Shown: positions 3,073 through 32,783 of the stretch, one piece after another
Layout: the number at the start of each line of letters is the position of its first letter
Numbering within the stretch: position 1 is the stretch's first letter
Source of the DNA: Pseudomonadota bacterium
GTDB taxonomy: Bacteria; Myxococcota_A; UBA796; GCA-2862545
Assembly: GCA_023954855.1 (NCBI GenBank)
Contig: JAGSGY010000015.1
Location: 8,553-72,552 of the forward strand
Reading direction: 5' to 3'
DNA: 64,000 bases
Program-made: the position numbers and the translations under genes
Notes under the pieces: generated by a model
The model's database searches: none
What the model saw: only the letters and a program-made list of their open reading frames with translations
Told to the model about the DNA's origin: nothing

Positions 3073-3677
3073 TCCGCGTCTTGGGGAGTGACACACGCAA
3101 CCGCGAAGACGATGCGCTCAGCGCCAGCTCCAAGCAGTTCGCGCGCACAGGCCGAGGCCGTGGCGCCGGTGGTGGTCACGTCGTCGACGAGCAAGATGGT
3201 GCCCGAGACCGGCAGTGGGCTTCGAATGCGGCCGGCGAGCGCTTGCTTCCGGCGATGGGCGTTGAGGCCAGCCTGGCGGGGTCCGCGGTGGGCCACGAGG
3301 GCGCGGTGGTGGACGGGCACGGTGAGCTTCGCCGCGAGCGGCTCGGCCAGCACGCTCGGAAGCGCGAAGCCGCGAACGATGCGCCTCGTCCATGGAGAGG
3401 GCACCGGCACGACCGCGTCAACGCTGCCGACCACGGCGCTCAGTGGAGCGGCGACCGCCTCGGCGATGGCGATAGCGAGGGCCCGATCACCTCTGCCCTT
3501 GCTCGAGAGCACGGCCTTTCCGATGGGATCGCCGTACTGCGCCGCTGCCCAGGCCTCGGCGACCATCTCGGGAGCTTCGAAGGACTCGGCTTCGGAGGGG
3601 TGGCAGTCCAAACAGAGGCGCAGCTTGCCCTCTGAGCCGCAGCCCGCGCACGGAATCGGCCAGAGGTGCGCCAGCAA
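3066..3677 (-). CDS. ComF/GntX-family phosphoribosyltransferase (double zinc-ribbon + PRTase domain)
   Basis: N-terminal CxxC...CxxC (CAGCGSEG...CLDCH) and PRPP-binding signature ILLVDDVTTTGATASACAREL typical of ComF family type I PRTases. Confidence 0.8.
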   Translation of the reverse strand: MLAHLWPIPCAGCGSEGKLRLCLDCHPSEAESFEAPEMVAEAWAAAQYGDPIGKAVLSSKGRGDRALAIAIAEAVAAPLSAVVGSVDAVVPVPSPWTRRIVRGFALPSVLAEPLAAKLTVPVHHRALVAHRGPRQAGLNAHRRKQALAGRIRSPLPVSGTILLVDDVTTTGATASACARELLGAGAERIVFAVACVTPQDADA

Positions 3678-3680
3678 GGT

Positions 3681-4823
3681 CTACAGTCCGAGGGTGTCGT
3701 GCGGAATGATCTCGACCTTGACCGTGCTGTCGACGTCGCCACGCAGGGCCTTCGCCCGATCGGTGGCCCAGGCGTCGGCCGTGGTGGCGTCGGCGAAGGG
3801 CTCGGACGGGAACGCGGTGTGAACTTGGCCAGTGCCCTTGCACTTCTGCGCAGCCGTGAGGTCCCACTCGGTCGACAGGCGCTCGCCGAGCTGGGGCTCG
3901 AGCTGATCGGGCCAGACCATTCCAAGCACGGTGGCGGTGTGGATGAGTACCTTGCGCTTGCCGTTCTTGCAGGTCACGTCCTCAACGGCGACGGCTCCGT
4001 AGGTGTACTTGCCACCCTCGATCCGCTCTTGCCAACGCCAGACGACGGCGGCGTTCGCGGCACTCTCGTCACCGAGCGCGGTCAGGGTGTCACGCGCCTT
4101 CTCGACGGCCAGCGGCGGCAGCTTGGGCCCCAGGTCATTGAGGGCGGCCACCGCGGCAGCGGCACCGTCTGCATCGGTTCCCGAGGACGAGCCGACCTGG
4201 GCGGCGTCCGCGAAGGCACCGATCACGTCAACGAGGTCCGCCTCAGCCTCGAGGCTGGATGCGAGGGACTTCAGGCTTGGGATGGCAATGGGGCCGGCAG
4301 CGCGCGCGTAGGTGGCGACGAGGTTGGTCCATTGGGTGCGGACCAGACGCTCCTTGACCGCGGGGTCTTCCATCGCGTCGGCGAGAAGCGCGAGGCTTGG
4401 CTCGGTGCGGCAGGTCGCAAGGGCCCGGTACCAGCCGCCGTCGAAAAAGGTGCCCGGGTCATCGTGACGGGTGGCCACGAAGAACTCGGTCACACCTGGG
4501 GCGTCGCAGTGGCCGGCCAAATACCCCAGGGTGCGGGCCGACTCCGAGGGATCGAGGCGGGCGACGAAGCCGCGGGCATCCGCTTCCCCACCGAGCGCGA
4601 GGGCCGCAACCACTGCCGCGTGGGCGCCTTCGTTCTCGATCATCTTTCCGAGTGCGTCGCTCATGCGCTTCTTTGCTGCACCCTCGTCGCAGGCGGCGAG
4701 TGCGGCGAAGTGCTTTCCGACGGAAGCCGGGGACGCCTCGGACAGGGTAGCGCCAAGGGCTTTGGCATCGCAGTCATCGGCCAGAGCCGGGGACGAGAGA
4801 ATCAGAGAGAGCAGGAGCGTCAC
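3681..4823 (-). CDS. Secreted Ala-rich hypothetical protein
   Basis: Real start probably GTG at 4821-4823 (GGAGG 4 nt upstream) giving VTLLLSLILSSPALADDC signal peptide. The track ORF 3681..5960 is extended upstream across the antisense of mdh. Confidence 0.55.
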   Translation of the reverse strand: MTLLLSLILSSPALADDCDAKALGATLSEASPASVGKHFAALAACDEGAAKKRMSDALGKMIENEGAHAAVVAALALGGEADARGFVARLDPSESARTLGYLAGHCDAPGVTEFFVATRHDDPGTFFDGGWYRALATCRTEPSLALLADAMEDPAVKERLVRTQWTNLVATYARAAGPIAIPSLKSLASSLEAEADLVDVIGAFADAAQVGSSSGTDADGAAAAVAALNDLGPKLPPLAVEKARDTLTALGDESAANAAVVWRWQERIEGGKYTYGAVAVEDVTCKNGKRKVLIHTATVLGMVWPDQLEPQLGERLSTEWDLTAAQKCKGTGQVHTAFPSEPFADATTADAWATDRAKALRGDVDSTVKVEIIPHDTLGL

Positions 4824-4958
4824 GGGGCCTCCAAGAGGGCTTGTTCGGCAGTCGAACCCGCCGAGCCCCCTCCCTATTCGAAACCAGTGCGTTGACCACC
4901 GGACGCAACCCCGTGTGTGGGTTAGGGCCGACAGCCACACGAGACGAGAGGCATCCTC

Positions 4959-5942
4959 ATGAGTGCGAAACCTGCCATTCGCGTGGCTGTGACCGGCGCG
5001 GCCGGCAACATCGGCTACTCCCTTCTCTGGCGCATTGCGAGCGGCAACTGCTTCGGCGCTGACCAGCCAGTCATCCTGCAGCTGCTCGAGATCCCGCCCG
5101 GCATGGACCGCCTCAACGGCGTCTGCATGGAGCTCACCGACTCCGCGTTCCCGCTGGTGCACGGCATTGTCGCCACCTCCGACGCCAACGTCGCCTTCGA
5201 TGGCGTCAACCAAGCCTTCCTCGTCGGCTCGCGCCCGCGCGGCCCGGGCATGGACCGCAGCGATCTCGTTGCGGCCAACGGCCCGATCTTCGTCGGCCAG
5301 GGCAAGGCCCTCAACGACAACGCCGCTGATGACGTGCGCGTGATCGTGGTCGGAAACCCCTGCAACACCAACGCGCTCATCGCGAACGCGAACGCTCCGG
5401 ACATTCCGGACGATCGCTTCACCGCCATGACCCGCCTGGACCACAACCGGGCCATGGGACAGCTCGCCGCCAAGGCCGGCCGCCCCGTCGCCGACGTCGA
5501 AGGCGTCATTGTCTGGGGCAACCACTCCCCGACCATGTACCCCGACGTGTCCAAGGCCACCGTGCAGGGCAAGTCCGTCGTCGACACCTTCGACGCTGAC
5601 TGGCTCGGCAGCGAGTTCCACAAGACCGTCTCCACCCGCGGAAAGGCGATCATCAACGCGCGCGGCGCCTCTTCGGCCGCTTCGGCTGCCAACGCCGCCC
5701 TCGATCACATGCGTGACTGGTGGACCGGCACGAACGGCAAGCCCGTCTCGATGGCCCTGCCCAGCAAGGGCTGGTACGGAATCCCCGAGGGCCTCATGTT
5801 CTCGGTTCCGACCATCTGTGAGGCCGATGGCTCGCTGACCGTCGTCGAGGATTGGGAGCTCTCCGATCACGCCAAGGCGAAGATCGCAGCCAGCGCCGAC
5901 GAGCTCCTCAAGGAGCGGGCCGCGGTCGCCGAGCTTCTCTAG
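4959..5942 (+). CDS. mdh: Malate dehydrogenase (NAD-dependent, LDH-like MDH family)
   Basis: [29 protein letters not shown] Rossmann motif, conserved MDH core ([15 protein letters not shown]), 327 aa. Confidence 0.95.
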
Positions 5943-5970
5943 AGACGCACCGCGACGCACCGCGTCGAGA

Positions 5971-6238: not shown

Positions 6239-7849
6239 ATGAATCGCATTCTTGGCCTGGCCATTACGAGTATTGCTCTGCTTGGAGCCTGCTCCGACCA
6301 TGAGTTTTCGGAGCTGCAGGAGCCAAACCTCGGAGTCTCGCCAGAGATTCTCGTTGAGCCCACCTCCATTGCCTTCGGCGTTGTCGCTGACGGACAGCAG
6401 GAGATTCGCCAATTCACCATCTCCAACATCGGTGAGGCGACGCTCCAGGTCGACGGCATCACCCTTGTGGGCGATGGCGGATTCACCATCCTCTCGCAGG
6501 GCCTCGACTTCGAGCTCGAGCCCCTCTCCGAAGACGAGACCAACGTTCGGGTCATCGATGTGGCGTTCTCGCCCCTCTCCGACGCGGATGCGACGGGCCA
6601 GGCCCTGGTCAACTCGAATGACCCGGACAACGCGCAGGTCCCCGTCGACCTTCTCGGCCTCTCTTCCGGACCCTTCCTCGTGGTTTCGCCCGATCCCTAC
6701 GACTTCGGCACCAAGTACGTCGGTAACGGCTGCCTCTACGACCAGCAGCTCACCCTCACCAACGAGGGCCTCGAGGACCTGGTCATCACCGACTTCGGGT
6801 ACGCCGACACCACTGGCCTGCTCGACCTCACCCAGCAGCCGGCGCTTCCGCTTACGCTGGCGCCCGGCCAGTCCAGCAACGTCAACGTGAACTTCGACGC
6901 GTGGACGTCGGCCACAGCGACGGGCACGCTCTCGGTCACCTCGAATGACCCGCGCGGCGTGGTTGACGCGGTCCAGTACGCGGACACGCAGCACGCGCTG
7001 ACGCAGACCGACAGCTTCACGATGCCCACCGAGCTTCCCGTCGACATCGTCTTCGCGGTCGATCAGTCCTGTTCGATGGGTACGATCCTCACGAACAACA
7101 CGAACAACTTCTCGACCTTCATCAACACCATCAACTCCGTCACCCAGGACTGGCGCATCGGCGTGCTCTCCAACGATGGCGGTTGTTTCACCGGTGGCTG
7201 GATTCACTCGGGAACGTCGAACTTCCCGGCTGCGTTCAACAACGCGGTGTGGCAGGACTCCGATGGTGGTGGTTCGTGGTCCGAGCGTCTATTCACGCTC
7301 ACCGAGTCGTCCTTCAACCAGATGGGCTCGGGCTGTAACGCCGGCTTCATGCGCTCTGGCGCGCTGCTCCACGTGGTCTTCGTGTCTGACGAGTACGAGC
7401 AGACGGCGGGAAGCACGGGCGGTGCTTCGGCGCGTGCCTCGACCTTCCACGGCAACCTGATCAACGCGAAGGGCTCGGCCAGCCTGGTCAAGGCCTCGGG
7501 CATCATCTGCCCCGGAACCAGCTCGAGCAGCTGCCCGTCCGGCTCGCCTGATGGCTCGAACCACGGCTACGTCGACGCGGTCAACCTGACTGGCGGCGTG
7601 CAGCTCGACATCACCTCGACCGACTGGGGCGCCTCCGTCGAGGAGCTCGCCACCGCGAGTCTCGTCGCACTCGGACGCTTTGAGCTCACGCAGTCCGCTG
7701 ACCCGAGTGTGGTTGGCGTGCAGGTCGACGGCTCGACCTGGACCGACTGGCACTACGACATGGCGACCAACAGCATCGTCTTCGACAGCTTGCCGCCCGC
7801 CGGCGCCGCGATCACCGTCACCTACGGTGTGGCCATCAGCTGCAACTAG
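6239..7849 (+). CDS. Secreted lipoprotein with ASH/HYDIN-like beta-sandwich repeats and a vWA (MIDAS) domain
   Basis: MNRILGLAITSIALLGACSD lipoprotein signal; DIVFAVDQSCSMG matches vWA MIDAS DxSxS; N-terminal repeats resemble choice-of-anchor/ASH domains. Confidence 0.85.
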   Translation: MNRILGLAITSIALLGACSDHEFSELQEPNLGVSPEILVEPTSIAFGVVADGQQEIRQFTISNIGEATLQVDGITLVGDGGFTILSQGLDFELEPLSEDETNVRVIDVAFSPLSDADATGQALVNSNDPDNAQVPVDLLGLSSGPFLVVSPDPYDFGTKYVGNGCLYDQQLTLTNEGLEDLVITDFGYADTTGLLDLTQQPALPLTLAPGQSSNVNVNFDAWTSATATGTLSVTSNDPRGVVDAVQYADTQHALTQTDSFTMPTELPVDIVFAVDQSCSMGTILTNNTNNFSTFINTINSVTQDWRIGVLSNDGGCFTGGWIHSGTSNFPAAFNNAVWQDSDGGGSWSERLFTLTESSFNQMGSGCNAGFMRSGALLHVVFVSDEYEQTAGSTGGASARASTFHGNLINAKGSASLVKASGIICPGTSSSSCPSGSPDGSNHGYVDAVNLTGGVQLDITSTDWGASVEELATASLVALGRFELTQSADPSVVGVQVDGSTWTDWHYDMATNSIVFDSLPPAGAAITVTYGVAISCN

Positions 7850-26054: not shown

Positions 26055-26187
26055 ATCGACTCCAGAGCCCAGGAAATAGCACCTCATCGCGTGGATCGCC
26101 GAAGCCGTTCCACAATTGACGCTTCCTGGAACATAGTTGTGTGGCGCACTCCCGGGCGCGGTTGGTTACCCGGCGTGCGGAGGAAGG

Positions 26188-28026
26188 ATGGCTCAGGGCC
26201 TTGTGGTCGGTACGTCTGGCCACATCGATCACGGGAAGACCTCGTTGGTGCGCGCGCTCACGGGCGTGGACCTCGATGCCCTCCCCGAAGAGCAGGAGCG
26301 AGGCATCACGATCGCGCTCGGCTTCACGCCGCTCGATCTCGATGACGGCCGACGGGTGGCCTTTGTCGACGTTCCCGGGCACGAGCGCTTGGTGCGGACC
26401 ATGGTCGCCGGGGCCGCGGGCGTCGATGCCGTGTTGCTCTGCATCTCAGCGGTCGATGGCACGATGCCTCAGACCCGCGAACACCTCGCGATTCTCGACC
26501 TGCTTGGGGTGACGCAAGGGGCCGTGGTCCTGACGATGGCCGACCTCGTCGACGACGAGCTGCTCGAGATGGCGGCAGAAGACGCCGAGATGCTGGTCGA
26601 GGGCACGTTCCTCGAGGGGGCGCCAGTGGTGCCGTTCTCGTCGGTGACCGGTCGTGGCAAGCCCGAGTTGCTCGAGGTGATTGCCACGTTCGCGCAGACC
26701 GACCGCAGTCCAACCGGTCCGTTCCGACTGCCGGTCGATCGCGCGTTCGTACGGCCTGGCTTTGGCACCGTGGTGACGGGCACGGCATGGTCTGGACGTG
26801 TCTCCGATGGCCAGACGCTGCGCTTGTTGCCCTCCGAGGCGTCGGTTCGCATTCGCGGTGTGCAAGTGCATGGCGAGTCGGTGTCGGAAGCGATTGGCGG
26901 CCAGCGCGTGGCGCTAAACCTGGCAGGGGTCGAGAAGCAGGACGTTCCGCGTGGCACCTTGGTGGTCGGCGGCGACGTGGCCGTGAGCTCGATGCTCGAC
27001 GTGCGCTACACGCACCTTCCCGGGGCTCCCGAACTCGACGATGGGGCGCAGGTCCGCGTGTTGCTCGGCACCTCGGAGCGCATCGGCCGGCTTCACATCG
27101 CTGCCAACAACGACCATCTGGTTCCCGGGCGCACCACAGCGGCGCAGCTCCGCTTGGACAAGCCACTGGCCTGCTTGCCCGGGGATCGGTTTGTGATCCG
27201 CCGCGCGAGTCCGGTGACCACCCTTGGTGGAGGCGTCGTGGTCGACCCTTGGGCGCCGCGTATGCGTCACAAGACGCGGGTGGCGCACGGTGAGGCCATG
27301 AACCGCCTTGCCGATGGCGATGCGGTGGTGTGGCTCGAGCGCGCCGGGGAGGGCGGCCTGTCGCTGGCCGAGTGGTCGCTTCGAGCGGGTGACACCTTGG
27401 CGCCGGTCCTCGGTGAGCGCGTGCTCGCTCCACGGGTTCTCGGACGACTCGAAGGTGCGTTGCTCCAGGCCCTCACCGCCTACCATGCCGAGCTTCCGCT
27501 CTCGCTGGGCGCGCATCGCCGGGAGCTGCGACGCGGGCGGCTGGCCCACGTGGACGAGAAGATCTTCGATGGGCTCGTGGACCGCCTGTCTGACGGGCAC
27601 TTGATCGACGTGCATGGACCGCTGGTTCGTCTCGCCAGTTTCCATGTGGAGCCCACGCCGGAGCAGGTGGTGATCAAGGACAGAGTCGCGGCCTCGTTGG
27701 CGGCCGCAGGCTTTGCCGGTATCGCCCCGAAGGTGCTTCACGAGACCCACTCCGAGCCCGAGGTCGAGGCGCTTGCCAGGCTGCTCGAGGCCGAGGGCGT
27801 CGCGGTGCTTGTTCCGCAAGTGGGCTGGGTCGATGCATCGGTGCTCGAGGGGCTTCGCGTGTCATTGCGAGAGCACTTCGAGGGCGCCGAGTTCCTCACG
27901 CCCGCAGACTTCAAGGCGATGACCTCGTTGTCGCGAAAGACCGCGATTCCGCTGTTGGAGTGGCTCGACAGGTCGAAGTGGACCTCGCGGCGTGGCGAGG
28001 GACGCGTCGTCGGCGCTCAGCTCTAG
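26188..28026 (+). CDS. selB: Selenocysteine-specific translation elongation factor SelB
   Basis: GTSGHIDHGKTSLVRALTG (G1), RGITIALGF, DVPGHERLV (G3), ~613 aa with C-terminal winged-helix region. [11 protein letters not shown] before ATG 26188. Track start 26137 is an upstream extension. Confidence 0.9.
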   Translation: MAQGLVVGTSGHIDHGKTSLVRALTGVDLDALPEEQERGITIALGFTPLDLDDGRRVAFVDVPGHERLVRTMVAGAAGVDAVLLCISAVDGTMPQTREHLAILDLLGVTQGAVVLTMADLVDDELLEMAAEDAEMLVEGTFLEGAPVVPFSSVTGRGKPELLEVIATFAQTDRSPTGPFRLPVDRAFVRPGFGTVVTGTAWSGRVSDGQTLRLLPSEASVRIRGVQVHGESVSEAIGGQRVALNLAGVEKQDVPRGTLVVGGDVAVSSMLDVRYTHLPGAPELDDGAQVRVLLGTSERIGRLHIAANNDHLVPGRTTAAQLRLDKPLACLPGDRFVIRRASPVTTLGGGVVVDPWAPRMRHKTRVAHGEAMNRLADGDAVVWLERAGEGGLSLAEWSLRAGDTLAPVLGERVLAPRVLGRLEGALLQALTAYHAELPLSLGAHRRELRRGRLAHVDEKIFDGLVDRLSDGHLIDVHGPLVRLASFHVEPTPEQVVIKDRVAASLAAAGFAGIAPKVLHETHSEPEVEALARLLEAEGVAVLVPQVGWVDASVLEGLRVSLREHFEGAEFLTPADFKAMTSLSRKTAIPLLEWLDRSKWTSRRGEGRVVGAQL

Positions 28027-28400
28027 CCGACCCACTCGCGCACGTCGGTGCGAATCAACAGGCCGATGATCACCAGCGAGAGGGGGCTGCAGCACGGGTT
28101 GAGGACCAGGTGCACACCGGCGATGGCAAGGCTGATCAGCCAGGCCCAAGGACGTCGCGTCGCGAGTCCCCAAACACAGAGCAGGCCGCTTGCCGCGAGC
28201 ACAGCGCCTCCGAGAAAGGGCACGAGGCCTGCCGCTGGAACCATGTACGCAGGGGGTGCGGACGGAATGTTCTGCAGCACCGTCTGGATCCAGGCGTAGT
28301 AGGCACCCGCCGAGGCGCCCATCACCACGTCGAAGACCGCCTGACCGAGCAGCATGTACTGGATTGCGAGAACCGCGGTCGGCCGAGTCGCTTCGTCCAC
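28023..28400 (-). CDS. Small integral membrane protein, hypothetical
   Basis: 125 aa with 3-4 predicted TM helices. Stop codon overlaps selB stop (CTAG). Confidence 0.45.
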
Positions 28401-28498
28401 CTCTTCTCCCGTGGGCTCTGCGCATGGCTATCCCTCGCGTTCGCGGCATGCCAAGCAGGTCGCTGCGGGATAGGTCTCGCCGTCACGAGAGGAGACCG

Positions 28499-30253
28499 AT
28501 GCTCACCGAACGCACCCACACCGCCGGCGAACTGCGGCGCGAACACGCAGGAACCACCGTTGTCCTTCAGGGCTGGGCTGCGCGCGTGCGAGATCGCGGC
28601 GGCGTCACCTTCATCGTGCTGCGCGATCGGTACGGCAAGGTCCAGGTGACCGTCGATGAGCGCTGCTCCGAGGCCATTCGCGAGGTCGCGAAGTCGGTCC
28701 GCCAAGAGTACGTCGTTCAGGTCTCCGGCGAGGTGGTCGAGCGTTACCGCGAGAACAACGACATGGCGACTGGCGCCATCGAGATCGTTCCGACCGCACT
28801 CGAGGTGCTCTCCGGCACTCGTCCGCTTCCGTTCGCGCTCGACGAGCACATGGACGCCCACGAAGAGACCCGTCTTCGTTACCGCTTCCTCGATCTTCGT
28901 CGTCCCCAGCTGCAGCGGAACATGATCTTGCGTCACAAGGCGGCCCTCGCCGTGCGCCGTGCGCTCGATTCGCAGGACTTCCTCGAGATCGAGACGCCGA
29001 TGCTCACCAAGGCCACGCCCGAAGGCGCGCGCGACTACGTCGTGCCCAGCCGCGTGCATCCCGGCCACTGGTACGCGCTTCCGCAGTCGCCGCAGATCTT
29101 CAAGCAGATCTTGATGGTGGCCGGCATGGACCGCTACTTCCAGATCGTGCGCTGCTTCCGCGACGAGGACCTGCGTGCCGACCGTCAGCCCGAGTTCACG
29201 CAGATCGACATCGAGATGTCGTTCGCGACGCAGGACATGGTGCTCACCGCCGCCGAGAAGGTGGTGCGGGCGATGTGGGCAGAGGCCGGTCACGAGATCG
29301 CCGAGATCCCGCGGCTGACCTTCGCCGAAGCCATGGACCGCTTCGGTGTCGACAACCCCGACATGCGCTTCGGCATGGAGCTGTGCACGATCACTTCCGA
29401 GCTCGGCGACAGCAGCTTCCCGCCGATCGCCAACGCCATCGCCGACGGCGGCATCGTCAAGGGCTTCGTGCTCAAGGGCGGCGCCGAGGGCAACTCACGC
29501 AAGGTGCTCGATGGCTGGACGGCGTTTGTGCGCGGCTACGGTCTCGGCGGCCTGCTCTGGGGCAAGGTCACCGCCGATGGTGCGACCGGACCGCTCGGCA
29601 AGGTCGTTCCCGACGCGCCCGGCATGCTCGCAGCGATGGGTGCCGAGCCCGGCGACCTCGTGCTGGTCGGAGCTGGCGAAGAGGACCTCGTCAACACCGG
29701 CATCGGCCGACTTCGCGTCAAGGTGGCCAAGGACAAGGAGCTCATCGAGCCCGGCCTCTTCACCTTCTGCTGGGTGGTCGACTTCCCGCTGTTCGAGAAG
29801 GACGGAGACGGCGGCTGGACCCCGATGCACCACCCCTTCACCTCGCCCAAGCCGCAGCACCTCGGCCATCTCGAGGACGGCAACCTCGGCGCCATCCTCT
29901 CGGATGCCTACGACCTCGTCTGCAACGGCAGCGAGCTCGGTGGCGGCTCGATTCGTATCCACCGCGAGGATGTGCAGCAGCAGATCTTCCGCGCGCTGGG
30001 CATTGACGAGCAAGAGCAGCGCGAGAAGTTCGGCTTCCTGCTCGACGCACTCGCACACGGTGCTCCGCCGCACGGTGGACTGGCCTTCGGACTCGACCGC
30101 TGCGTCATGCTTCTCGCCGAGGCCGACTCGCTGCGCGACGTCATCGCCTTCCCGAAGACGACGAGCGCTCAGGACGTGATGTGTGGCGCGCCCTCCAAGG
30201 TCGACAACGCCGAGCTCGATGAGCTTCACGTGAAGAACCTGGACCGCGGATGA
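28499..30253 (+). CDS. aspS: Aspartate--tRNA ligase
   Basis: [50 protein letters not shown] (OB-fold anticodon-binding), class II motifs ([40 protein letters not shown]). GAGGAG SD upstream of ATG 28499. Confidence 0.95.
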
Positions 30254-30825
30254 CGGTCTACTCGAAGCGCCTGGACGAAGCGGTTGCACTCGCGGTGCGC
30301 GAGTTTCGGCCGGTCGTGCGCAAGGGCACCACGGTGCCCTACATCACCCACCTGTTTGGCGTGATGGCGCTCGTCGGCGAGTTCGGGGGCGACGAAGACC
30401 AGCTGATTGCGGCCGTGCTCCACGACTTCCTCGAGGACATCGAGTCCTCGTCCGAAGAAGCGATGCGCGCCCAGTTTGGCGACCGGGTGACGCGCATGGT
30501 CGTGCAGTGCACCGACACGACTCAGATCCCGAAGCCACCGTGGCGGCATCGCAAACAGAAGCACCTGGCGAAGGTGCTCGGCCTGCCCGACGACACCCGT
30601 CTCGTGATGTGCGCGGACAAGCTCCACAACTGCACCACCCTCGTGCGCGATGTGCGGCATGAGGGCGTAGCGACGCTCGAACGCTTCACGGGCAAGCGGG
30701 AAGGCACGCTCTGGTACTACCGCGAGATGGCGGTGGCCCTGGGCATGGGCTGGCGCCACCCGATCCTCGATGTGTTCGAGCGGACGGTCTCGGATCTCGA
30801 AGAGGCGGCCGGGGTATTGCGATGA
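30250..30825 (+). CDS. HD-domain protein, Mesh1/SpoT-like small alarmone ((p)ppGpp) hydrolase family
   Basis: [13 protein letters not shown]...[12 protein letters not shown] (H...HD metal site) and [12 protein letters not shown] (cf. Mesh1 KLADKLYNLRDL). ATG overlaps aspS stop (ATGA). Confidence 0.75.
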
Positions 30826-31010
30826 GCACGGTTCGACTGGTCGATGCCGGACCCGACAAGGTCGCGGTGATCAAGGTTGTCTGCAAGGCGACGAAGAGCA
30901 CGCTTCAGCAGGCTTTCGATGCCGTGCAGTCAGTGCCTACGGAGCTCACGCTCGACGAAGAGAGTGTCGAGGCACTGCGCGAGCTCGGGGCCGTGCTCGA
31001 GGCGCTGTAG
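30822..31010 (+). CDS. Stand-alone ribosomal protein L7/L12 C-terminal-domain-like miniprotein (62 aa)
   Basis: [62 protein letters not shown] aligns with the L7/L12 CTD ([37 protein letters not shown]...EALKKALEEAGA), including the KVAVIK signature. ATGA overlap with the HD gene. Confidence 0.55.
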   Translation: MSTVRLVDAGPDKVAVIKVVCKATKSTLQQAFDAVQSVPTELTLDEESVEALRELGAVLEAL

Positions 31011-31328
31011 CTAGCTGCACTCCGCGGGGCCGCCGACCACAATGGTGACCTGTGGCGCGTCGTCGAGCGACAGCGTGATGGTGGTGGCGAGCGTGAAGGG
31101 AATTCCGCTGAAGACGGTCTTCCAGACGTCGTGTACCGTGTCGGCCGAGGCCGGTCCGGACAGGTCGAACTCGAAGTCGGAGACAGGTGGGTCGCCGATC
31201 ATCGTGCCACCACCGACGGGGTCGACGTCCATGCCGAGCTGGTCGCTGAGTGCCTCGCCCAGCATGTCTTCGACGTAGCCGCGGTCCATCGGCGACAAGC
31301 CGGGCGTGATGGTGCAGCTGAGCTTCAT
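31011..31328 (-). CDS. Hypothetical small protein co-transcribed with SPFH gene
   Basis: 105-aa ORF whose start overlaps the SPFH gene stop (4 nt). Its stop abuts the L12-like gene stop (TAG|CTA). Confidence 0.45.
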   Translation of the reverse strand: MKLSCTITPGLSPMDRGYVEDMLGEALSDQLGMDVDPVGGGTMIGDPPVSDFEFDLSGPASADTVHDVWKTVFSGIPFTLATTITLSLDDAPQVTIVVGGPAECS

Positions 31329-32677
31329 GACGCGGGCGGGGGCGGGGGTCCGCCGCTACCCGGGGGTGGGGGAGGACCGGCAGACAGCGCGGCCGCGACC
31401 TCGGGAACGTCCTTTGCGGGCTTCCACCCGTCAAAGCCTTCGGCCCACAGGTGGTGTGTGCCGTCAGGGGAGGCCTTGAGAATGGCGATGACCTCGTCGA
31501 GGCTCTTCTCGCCGGGTCCGGCGTCGCCGTGGTAGTGAAAACTCAAGGTTGCGGCGGCTGGAGGCACTTTTCCGGCGATGGCTGGCACCTCGGTCCACGG
31601 CTTCCAGCCCGCCCAGCCGGCCTGCCAGATCAAGTGCTTGCCGGTGCGGTTCTTGGCGACTTCCGAGGCGATGGCGTCGGCGGTGAGCTGCTGCTGACTG
31701 CCGCCGAAGGAGTAGTGGAAGGTCTCGGCACCAGGCACCGGCGGGGGAACGGCCGCTCCGCCGCCGGCCATGCCCGTGTGGGGGTTGAAGTGGGCGCCGC
31801 CCTGGCCCATGCCGGCCATCTGGTTGCCCATCATGTTGCCCATGCCAAAGCCCACACCCATGCCGATGCCCGCGCCGCCAATGCCGGTGTTTGCGGCCGC
31901 GGTGCCAATGGCGTCGGCGGCCTGCAGCTTGGCGTAGGCGTCGAGATTGCCGAGCACGCCCATCTTGGTGCGCGCGTCGAGGGCCTTCTCGACCTCTTCG
32001 GGCAGGCTGATGTTCTCGATGGTGAAGTCGGAAATCGTGATGCCGTAGGCTTCTTGCACGGCGGGATTCATGCGGTCCCGCATCGCGTCGCCGAGGTCCA
32101 TGTAGTTGGCGGCGAGGTCGAGGACGGGGATGCGGGCTTGGCCGATGGTGTCGACCAAGGCCGAGACGAGCTTGCGCTTGAGCTGACCGGTGATTTCGTC
32201 GCGGGTGAACAGCCCGTCGGTGCCGACGATCTGGCGGATAAACTCGGCGGGATCGGTGACGCGGAACGAGTAGATGCCGAAGGCGCGCACGCGGACGGGG
32301 CCGAACTCCGCGTCACGCATCATGAACGGGTTCGCCGTGCCCCAGCGGTTCTCGGTGAACTGGCGGGTGTTCACGAAGAGGATGTCGCCCTTGTAGGGGT
32401 AGGACAGGCCGTACTTGATCGTCTGAAAGAACGAGGTGATCGGCGTGTTGCGCGTGTCGAGGGTGTAGGTGCCGGGACCGAACACGTCGGAGAGCTGGCC
32501 CTCCGAGACGAAGACCGCAGCCTGACCCTCGCGAACGATGAGCTTGGACTGGTCGGTGATCGCCTTGTCGAAGACGGGAAAGCGGTAGACGACGGTGTCG
32601 GAAGAGTCGTCGGTCCAGTCGATGACGTCGAGGAACTGAGCCTTCGCGTGCGAGGTCAGCGTGTCCCAGATTCCCAT
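31325..32677 (-). CDS. SPFH/band-7 family protein (COG4260-like) with two C-terminal GYF-like DUF4339 domains
   Basis: Start MGIWDTLTSHAKAQFLDVIDWTDDSSDTVVYRFP... is the conserved COG4260 N-terminus. Gly/Met-rich linker. Two repeats of HYxxG...LIWQAGWAGWKPWTEVP / HLWAEGFDGWKPAKDVP (DUF4339). Pro-rich tail. Confidence 0.85.
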   Translation of the reverse strand: MGIWDTLTSHAKAQFLDVIDWTDDSSDTVVYRFPVFDKAITDQSKLIVREGQAAVFVSEGQLSDVFGPGTYTLDTRNTPITSFFQTIKYGLSYPYKGDILFVNTRQFTENRWGTANPFMMRDAEFGPVRVRAFGIYSFRVTDPAEFIRQIVGTDGLFTRDEITGQLKRKLVSALVDTIGQARIPVLDLAANYMDLGDAMRDRMNPAVQEAYGITISDFTIENISLPEEVEKALDARTKMGVLGNLDAYAKLQAADAIGTAAANTGIGGAGIGMGVGFGMGNMMGNQMAGMGQGGAHFNPHTGMAGGGAAVPPPVPGAETFHYSFGGSQQQLTADAIASEVAKNRTGKHLIWQAGWAGWKPWTEVPAIAGKVPPAAATLSFHYHGDAGPGEKSLDEVIAILKASPDGTHHLWAEGFDGWKPAKDVPEVAAALSAGPPPPPGSGGPPPPPAS

Positions 32678-32783
32678 GTGTTCGCCTCCGTCTCCGGTGA
32701 GCATCGCAGACGCTCGCAGCCGGATCCAGCAAGGACGTATCCACGGTTCGCCGGACGGGAAGGATCGATCCGAGGCTTGGGCC

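Follow-up and report, generated by a model that had tools for sequence, protein, structure and literature searches.

Three genes in the 64-kb window analysed here (the whole stretch of DNA, part of a GC-rich metagenome-assembled genome and itself of 66% GC) lie head to tail on the plus strand and are joined by two ATGA stop/start overlaps that can be read directly from the sequence. The first, aspS (28499..30253), encodes a bacterial-type aspartyl-tRNA synthetase (AspRS) of 584 amino acids, as assigned with Pfam and NCBIfam, and has a Shine-Dalgarno sequence, AGGAG (28490..28494, plus strand), 5 nt 5′ of its ATG. The second (30250..30825), which shares the ATGA at 30250..30253 with aspS, encodes a RelH-type small alarmone hydrolase (SAH) of 191 amino acids with an HD_4 domain, identified by Pfam and by matches in the PDB. 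The third (30822..31010), which shares the ATGA at 30822..30825 with the SAH gene, is a 62-codon open reading frame (ORF) for a stand-alone divergent C-terminal domain (CTD) of ribosomal protein L7/L12 (bL12; Pfam PF00542), here called the miniprotein. Each of the parts (AspRS, RelH-type SAH and L12-CTD fold) is known, and the three-gene set is not a conserved module. Judged by gene order in relatives, aspS→SAH is a conserved translationally coupled pair in one Myxococcota-like clade, and the third cistron is an addition, made in the window's lineage, to a variable slot at the 3′ end of the pair.

Among the gene overlaps of bacterial operons, those of 4 bases are the most frequent. The two here indicate an operon with translational coupling, and by themselves are no proof of 1:1 stoichiometry. 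The initial annotation of this DNA gave the three ORFs and the two overlaps at positions that read back correctly, and its gene identities (aspS, alarmone hydrolase, L7/L12-CTD) are borne out by Pfam and NCBIfam scores above the cutoffs for each; its proposal of stoichiometric co-expression is not something that overlapping codons establish. In the interval 27900-31500, the interior of the three genes included, there is no sigma-70-like promoter and no convincing terminator, and neither Rfam families nor tRNAs occur anywhere in the window. The 3′ boundary of the operon is placed at the end of the miniprotein gene since its stop codon abuts the stop of a convergent 105-aa gene (31011..31328, minus strand), which has no Pfam match and is outside the module.

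The AspRS has an OB anticodon-binding domain, a class II core and a GAD insertion (Pfam PF00152 at 1.3e-116, PF02938 and PF01336), and its score of 782 bits on the NCBIfam equivalog for aspartate--tRNA ligase, NF001750, compares with a cutoff of 443. The hydrolase consists of a single domain that is matched by HD-type families only, and synthetase, TGS and ACT domains are lacking. With HMMER, HD_4 (PF13328) matches it at 66.9 bits (gathering threshold 27.2), and the match of TIGR00691 (spoT_relA) is partial, being confined to the hydrolase region. Among solved structures the nearest to it is Leptospira levettii RelH (7QOE; E 1.9e-34 over residues 5-161), with Corynebacterium glutamicum RelH (7QOC) at 1.4e-24 and Mesh1 at 6.7e-11. 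The initial description as a Mesh1/SpoT-like hydrolase is corrected by these values, which put the enzyme nearer to bacterial RelH-type SAHs than to Mesh1. Catalytic motifs HD1-HD6 are complete (R24/K25, H34, H58-D59, E62-D63, D123-K124, N127), align to those of 7QOE and are invariant in 28 aligned homologues; the H...HD and DKLHN motifs, of which the initial annotation had named the H...HD metal site and KLHN, are present among them (H34, H58-D59, E62-D63, D123-K124, N127). The roles of these motifs have been described (PMC9293644), and RelH enzymes, which act as dimers, have been shown biochemically to hydrolyze (p)ppGpp (Bisiak et al. 2022, PMC9293644), with the regulation of small alarmone hydrolases acknowledged there as unclear. 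Because of the similarity to 7QOE and 7QOC and the presence of every catalytic motif, the window's SAH is filed as RelH-like and is probably active.

The SAH family is large, with >1200 homologues of ~190 aa. Some of its members (P0072, P0094, P0108 and P0116; 276-279 aa) carry a C-terminal Cys-rich extension of ~70 aa with CxxC motifs and a weak, sub-threshold resemblance to DUF1450. At another locus (L031, 5561-5776) a similar Cys-rich sequence is a separate 71-aa ORF whose first base is the last one of the SAH stop, and the extension and the ORF together suggest that the family has a second small partner, or fusion, that recurs.

For gene neighborhoods, loci around SAH homologues were taken from 80 GTDB species and 80 JGI metagenome entries, supplemented by look-ups of the closest homologues. 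In about 16 of these loci aspS is directly upstream of the SAH gene, the AspRS orthologues being 59-82% identical, and the loci in question, whose titles point to Myxococcota, Sandaracinus and Polyangiales, are mostly grouped together on a neighbor-joining tree of SAH. A 4-nt junction, ATGA or GTGA, joins the two genes in the window and in L001/L002, L006, L009, L023, L085, L086 and L087, and a gap of 2-6 nt takes the place of the overlap in L011 and L012. The order extends upstream to selB→aspS→SAH in L009, L010, L011, L087 and the contig that encodes P0167. (At L010 a segment of ~1.4 kb, 3583-4995, splits aspS from the SAH gene.) In the literature searched, no description was found of clade-wide aspS→SAH coupling, or of an SAH with aspS, and no mention of an aspS-linked context for RelH-type enzymes.

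The initial annotation had also proposed that the 62-aa product of the third gene is homologous to the CTD of L7/L12, and the homology is upheld. The HMMER score of the miniprotein on Ribosomal_L12 (PF00542) is 29.9 bits, against a threshold of 25.9, over model positions 2-44 of 67, and a phmmer search of the PDB aligns its residues 6-54 to the E. coli L7/L12 CTD at 24 bits with E 4e-4 (5.7e-4 for 1CTF). An AlphaFold2 model built from a 2-sequence alignment has a pLDDT of 71 and the order β-α-α-β-α, its C-terminus being helical and the last β-strand unformed. When this model was compared with the PDB by Foldseek the thirteen best matches were all bL12 CTDs, the top six of which, 1CTF and 1RQS included, have a TM-score of 0.67-0.70, an rmsd of about 2 Å and up to about 40% identity. 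The best matches in a viral library were phage proteins that contain a bL12 CTD. A ClpS-like adaptor was considered as another identity and rejected, ClpS structures appearing in Foldseek at a TM-score of about 0.5 with probability <0.4 and 11-19% identity.

A stalk protein the miniprotein cannot be, because it has no N-terminal domain for dimerization and binding of uL10; it also has no hinge, its total length being 62 amino acids, and its gene is downstream of aspS and the SAH gene instead of in an rplJ-rplL context. On the L12 equivalog TIGR00855 it scores 20.1 bits over model positions 61-103 of 125, the cutoff being 84.4. The NCBI record for the protein, MCO4744769.1, names it 'ribosomal protein L7/L12'; given the missing N-terminal domain and 20 bits against an equivalog cutoff of 84, the name is misleading and is a case of over-annotation at the level of the domain.

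Comparison with P0002, the sole close homologue (80% identity), shows that the miniprotein is encoded by a real gene under purifying selection. The homologue is found on two short ENA contigs (L003 and L004) in which the C-terminus of SAH, the ATGA overlap and an ORF of 62 codons are all kept. Differences between the two genes are distributed 10/5/18 by codon position, with a synonymous divergence (dS) of 0.49 and a ratio of nonsynonymous to synonymous divergence (dN/dS) of 0.26, and synonymous changes are in excess (p about 0.001). The frame has no start codon before the one at 30822, GC content by codon position is 0.71/0.38/0.79, a coding-like pattern of the type seen in all three ORFs, and the alternative frames of the corresponding region of L003 contain stop codons. 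That the ORF is non-functional, either a decaying L12-like fragment or an annotation artefact in GC-rich DNA, would sit well with its being very short and having one homologue only, with a Pfam match limited to 2-44 of 67 positions and 4 bits over threshold, and with a pLDDT of 71. Such a reading is nevertheless very improbable in view of the low dN/dS and significant synonymous excess, the presence in a relative, separated by dS of about 0.5, of an intact ORF equal in length and identical in its start overlap, the coding-like base composition, the fold matches specific to bL12 CTDs and the stops in the alternative frames of L003.

L12-CTDs outside the ribosome are themselves widespread. In an exhaustive phmmer search of 1.84 billion representatives, all matches to the miniprotein other than its own pair were non-ribosomal proteins with 2-7 tandem L12-CTD repeats (P0123-P0165), the identity per domain being 31-52%. 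The ranking is no proof that the miniprotein is nearer to these repeats than to true bL12, since in so large a database ~24 bits, the level of a match to single-domain bL12, is too low to be significant. The repeat proteins show the L12-CTD to be a mobile module outside the ribosome, and the miniprotein is one of very few stand-alone single-domain cases. Fusions among the repeat proteins are to TIR domains, dynamin-like or EF-Tu-type GTPases, LRV or HEAT repeats and zinc ribbons; examples are P0149 (686 aa), P0124 (953 aa) and P0142 (1056 aa), the first of which weakly matches a PADLOC SAVED/TIR model. Searches of the literature for non-ribosomal L12-CTD paralogues, for PF00542 outside ribosomes or for a function of such proteins found none.

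The extent to which the miniprotein retains a factor-binding surface was followed column by column against 103 non-ribosomal L12-CTD repeat domains and E. coli bL12. The key factor-binding residues of bL12 are presumably, in E. coli numbering, K65, V66, I69, K70, R73, L80, E82 and K84, with the helix α4 residues K65, V66, I69 and K70 being reportedly in contact with the factors (Kothe 2004; Diaconu 2005; Helgstrand 2007). Kept in the miniprotein are the core and helix α4 (L6, G10, K13, V16, I17, K18, T24, L28, A31, D33, V35 and P39), including the equivalents of E. coli K65, V66, I69, K70 and L80. Seven positions are swapped: R73→C21, G79→T27, K81→Q29, E82→Q30, K84→F32, L86→A34 and E88→Q36, where in the 103 repeats the bL12 residue has a frequency, in the same order, of 83% (R), 90% (G), 68% (K), 77% (E), 92% (K), 83% (L) and 71% (E). 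With R73, E82, K84, G79 and K81 changed, the conserved surface formed by α4 and α5 is only part-kept. All seven swapped residues are identical in P0002, and on this comparison the α5 face is one that was remodelled and then fixed, as expected of a domain with a new binding partner and not of a faithful stalk decoy.

The last point bears on the suggestion, made in the initial annotation, of a decoy or mimic of the stalk CTD, which would titrate EF-G, EF-Tu, IF2, RF3 and possibly RelA in fixed proportion with AspRS and the hydrolase. The part of this suggestion that concerns descent holds up, there being genuine homology to the bL12 CTD in sequence and predicted fold and identity at the α4 equivalents of E. 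coli K65, V66, I69 and K70, and the part that needs an intact surface is weakened, since the changes R73→C, G79→T, K81→Q, E82→Q, K84→F and E88→Q alter the α4-α5 surface that is kept in the 103 repeats. A monomeric CTD in competition with the 4-6 stalk copies on each ribosome would presumably need very high expression, and it seems contradictory for an inhibitor of translation to be coupled with an enzyme by which the stringent response is relieved. The fixed proportion is also not established by overlapping codons, and the miniprotein is absent in the closest relatives. A decoy is accordingly quite unlikely.

Whereas the initial annotation took the three genes as a module, the survey of gene neighborhoods that finds aspS-SAH in ~16 loci finds SAH→miniprotein only in the window and in L003/L004. 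What follows the SAH gene is heterogeneous across all loci. In the closest genome (L001; GCA_006226595.1), with SAH 76% and AspRS 82% identical to those of the window, the slot holds a minus-strand zinc-ribbon gene, a duplicated remnant of the SAH 3′ end and a methyltransferase gene; in L085, L012 and L009 it is empty before a convergent gene, and in L087 an unrelated 308-aa gene follows SAH. The arrangement in L001 looks like an insertion scar in the very slot that in the window is taken by the miniprotein. (Within the L001 segment 6577-7466 the remnant, 7236-7466, which encodes ...AAVLR, is ~660 bp downstream of the intact SAH stop codon, and the zinc-ribbon gene, of 157 aa, is between the intact and the remnant SAH 3′ ends.) A scan for L12-like ORFs with a hidden Markov model of L12-like domains, to E = 50 in the 80 GTDB loci and to E = 1 in the 80 JGI loci, had L011 as its only match, and L12-like ORFs are otherwise lacking from the roughly 1.1 Mb of SAH-homology loci and from the remainder of the window. 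Fusions of SAH with L12 are found neither among the 120 best SAH homologues nor among 42 L12-repeat proteins.

The match in L011 belongs to a second type of L12-like gene. There selB→aspS→SAH is followed, about 70-80 nt downstream of the SAH gene, by an ORF of 100-104 aa (5634-5948) whose product ends in a transmembrane helix, i.e. is tail-anchored. Proteins of this type score 27-31 bits on PF00542 (31 for the L011 ORF, which is above threshold) and match in the α4-α5 motif only. The position after aspS-SAH is retained on contigs that encode L011-type proteins of 84% and 66% identity, the corresponding genes being at 1765-2067 in L088 and 1757-2062 in L089. More distant members of the tail-anchored family, from Variovorax and Burkholderiales, are in unrelated contexts. 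(The family as a whole, P0166-P0266, comprises proteins of 80-180 aa with one or two L12 α4-α5-like motifs that partly overlap DUF6793. Its members occur widely across Variovorax and Burkholderiales and frequently go by the annotation 'ribosomal protein L7/L12', and one subgroup directly follows aspS-SAH.) On the neighbor-joining tree of SAH, the L011 group and the window are set apart by lineages in which no L12-like gene is found, and this separation, together with the different L12-like subtypes, makes two independent recruitments to the +1 position a more parsimonious account than a single gain with many later losses. The two cases are suggestive, and not decisive, of a real link between SAH and L12-like proteins.

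The slot and the second lineage bear in opposite directions on whether the miniprotein is a hitch-hiker, that is a gene of recent origin, confined to this lineage and having no part in alarmone metabolism, that has settled in a recombination-prone 3′ slot and makes use of the operon's transcription and coupling. Variation of the slot among close relatives (miniprotein in one; zinc ribbon, methyltransferase and SAH scar in another; nothing in others) is what such a gene would lead one to expect, as is the lack of an L12-like neighbor at about 160 other SAH loci, and L12-CTD-like domains are promiscuous, being fused elsewhere to TIR, dynamin-like, LRV and zinc-ribbon domains. Against this, the ATGA overlap and ORF length have been kept across dS of about 0.5, position +1 is filled in another aspS-SAH lineage by an L12-like gene of a different kind, which is kept there to 66% identity, and neither the SAH-homology loci nor the remainder of the window contain an L12-like ORF anywhere else. 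Hitch-hiking is possible, if on balance somewhat improbable.

The reading preferred here starts from the pair. A hydrolase gene placed behind aspS would tie basal (p)ppGpp degradation to expression of the tRNA-charging machinery, such that the alarmone would be cleared as charging capacity goes up. The miniprotein, in turn, would most likely be a small accessory that acts by protein interaction and is produced along with the hydrolase, either binding that enzyme or linking it to a partner via the bL12-like α4 surface, for which the G domain of a translational GTPase is a candidate; action as a bulk competitor of the ribosomal stalk is less likely. For a functional link between miniprotein and SAH the prospects are evenly balanced, and several observations count against one. 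The miniprotein is absent from the nearest genomes, in which SAH is 76% (L001), 68% (L085) and 60% (L087) identical, and from about 160 other SAH loci; from its absence beside an otherwise unchanged SAH in those nearest genomes it follows that the hydrolase does not need it. It is also scarce: a word-indexed homologue search of 5.8 billion sequences (90% clustering) returned two matches, the miniprotein itself and P0002, the latter was the sole single-domain relative in the exhaustive phmmer search, and a scan of JGI metagenomes with the alignment of the two gave 382 pattern matches of which 0 were confirmed. The AlphaFold2 model is of moderate confidence, with just two sequences in its alignment and the last β-strand not formed. 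Finally, the second L12-like case could be due to chance, a rough Poisson estimate giving P = 0.002-0.33 depending on the background frequency assumed and on whether all SAH loci or the aspS-linked ones only are counted.

The more far-reaching proposal, that aspS-linked SAHs have dedicated partners in small L12-CTD-like proteins, which were recruited independently at least twice, with α4 joining (p)ppGpp hydrolysis to translational GTPases or to the hydrolase, is unlikely; if true, it would be a new way to couple alarmone turnover to the translation machinery. The initial annotation considered the arrangement not to be a described module, and in the literature searched there was indeed no description of an L12-CTD associated with an alarmone hydrolase. 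Should recurrence beside SAH prove functional, it would provide the first functional handle for non-ribosomal L12-CTDs and a new accessory factor of the stringent response. Should the link not be real, what remains is a housekeeping operon of the ordinary kind, a passenger gene specific to one lineage and a documented mis-annotation. The coupling of aspS and SAH offers a testable idea, namely that the expression of a tRNA-charging enzyme determines how much (p)ppGpp is cleared at the basal level.

The surroundings of the operon are relevant to a further possibility, a toxin-antitoxin or anti-phage module of the toxSAS/SAH kind. SAHs do serve as type IV antitoxins, encoded in two-gene operons with an overlap, and are themselves common in prophages (bioRxiv 10.1101/575399), and some L12-CTD repeat proteins have TIR domains. 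In the window, however, there is no RelA_SpoT synthetase domain among the neighboring genes, PADLOC has no match for SAH, miniprotein or neighboring genes, and of the hydrolase and miniprotein the former alone is matched in PHROGs, to generic phosphohydrolase families. The pair is also behind a housekeeping aspS with conserved chromosomal synteny (selB, Band_7), and a toxin-antitoxin or defence module is extremely improbable. Upstream, selB (26137..28026, plus strand), for the selenocysteine-specific elongation factor, is recognized by Pfam GTP_EFTU, Beta-barrel_SelB and SelB-wing_2/3, and between it and aspS is a minus-strand ORF for a 125-aa membrane protein with no Pfam match (28023..28400), which overlaps the selB stop codon by 4 nt. 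Beyond the operon's 3′ end, the convergent 105-aa gene overlaps by 4 nt (31325-31328) the gene upstream of it, which is also on the minus strand (31325-32704) and encodes a Band_7_1 (SPFH) protein with a Gly/Met-rich linker, GYF_2 domains and a Pro-rich tail. This pair of genes recurs in L001 and L085, and in L003 the Band_7 gene is present and its small neighbor missing.

Comparison with known systems brings out what is particular to the window. An association of synthetase genes with alarmone metabolism presumably exists in the Firmicutes neighborhood rel-dtd-hisS-aspS, which the literature search did not confirm; there a long bifunctional Rel would be upstream of the synthetase genes and not coupled to them, whereas in the window the enzyme is hydrolase-only, downstream and joined by a 4-nt overlap. 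With the characterized RelH enzymes (7QOC/7QOD, 7QOE; PMC9293644) the window's SAH has in common a single HD_4 domain of ~190 aa and motifs HD1-HD6, and differs in being encoded by the translationally coupled second cistron of aspS, an arrangement kept in one clade. The toxSAS/SAH systems (Jimmy et al., bioRxiv 10.1101/575399) likewise have an SAH gene in a tight overlapping operon with a small partner gene, but the window has no alarmone synthetase, is a housekeeping operon and gives no matches to defence models (PADLOC). For the miniprotein, the bL12 CTD has a fold that the predicted model resembles, ~40% identity over the aligned core and an identical KVAVIK in helix α4; what sets the miniprotein apart is the lack of the N-terminal domain and hinge, a location outside the rplJL context, a shortened helix α6 and the replacement of the canonical α5 signature by KSTLQQAFDAVQ. 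The tandem repeat proteins have 2-7 copies of PF00542 with the canonical α5 motif, the miniprotein being a single, α5-divergent copy. The tail-anchored family (e.g. P0166 and, from Variovorax, P0218) has the K-I/V-x-A/V-I-K helix in common with the miniprotein, but its helical motif is without β-strands, is of the canonical form GLGLKE(S/A)KD and is accompanied by a C-terminal transmembrane helix, and the gene of its L011 member does not overlap that of SAH.

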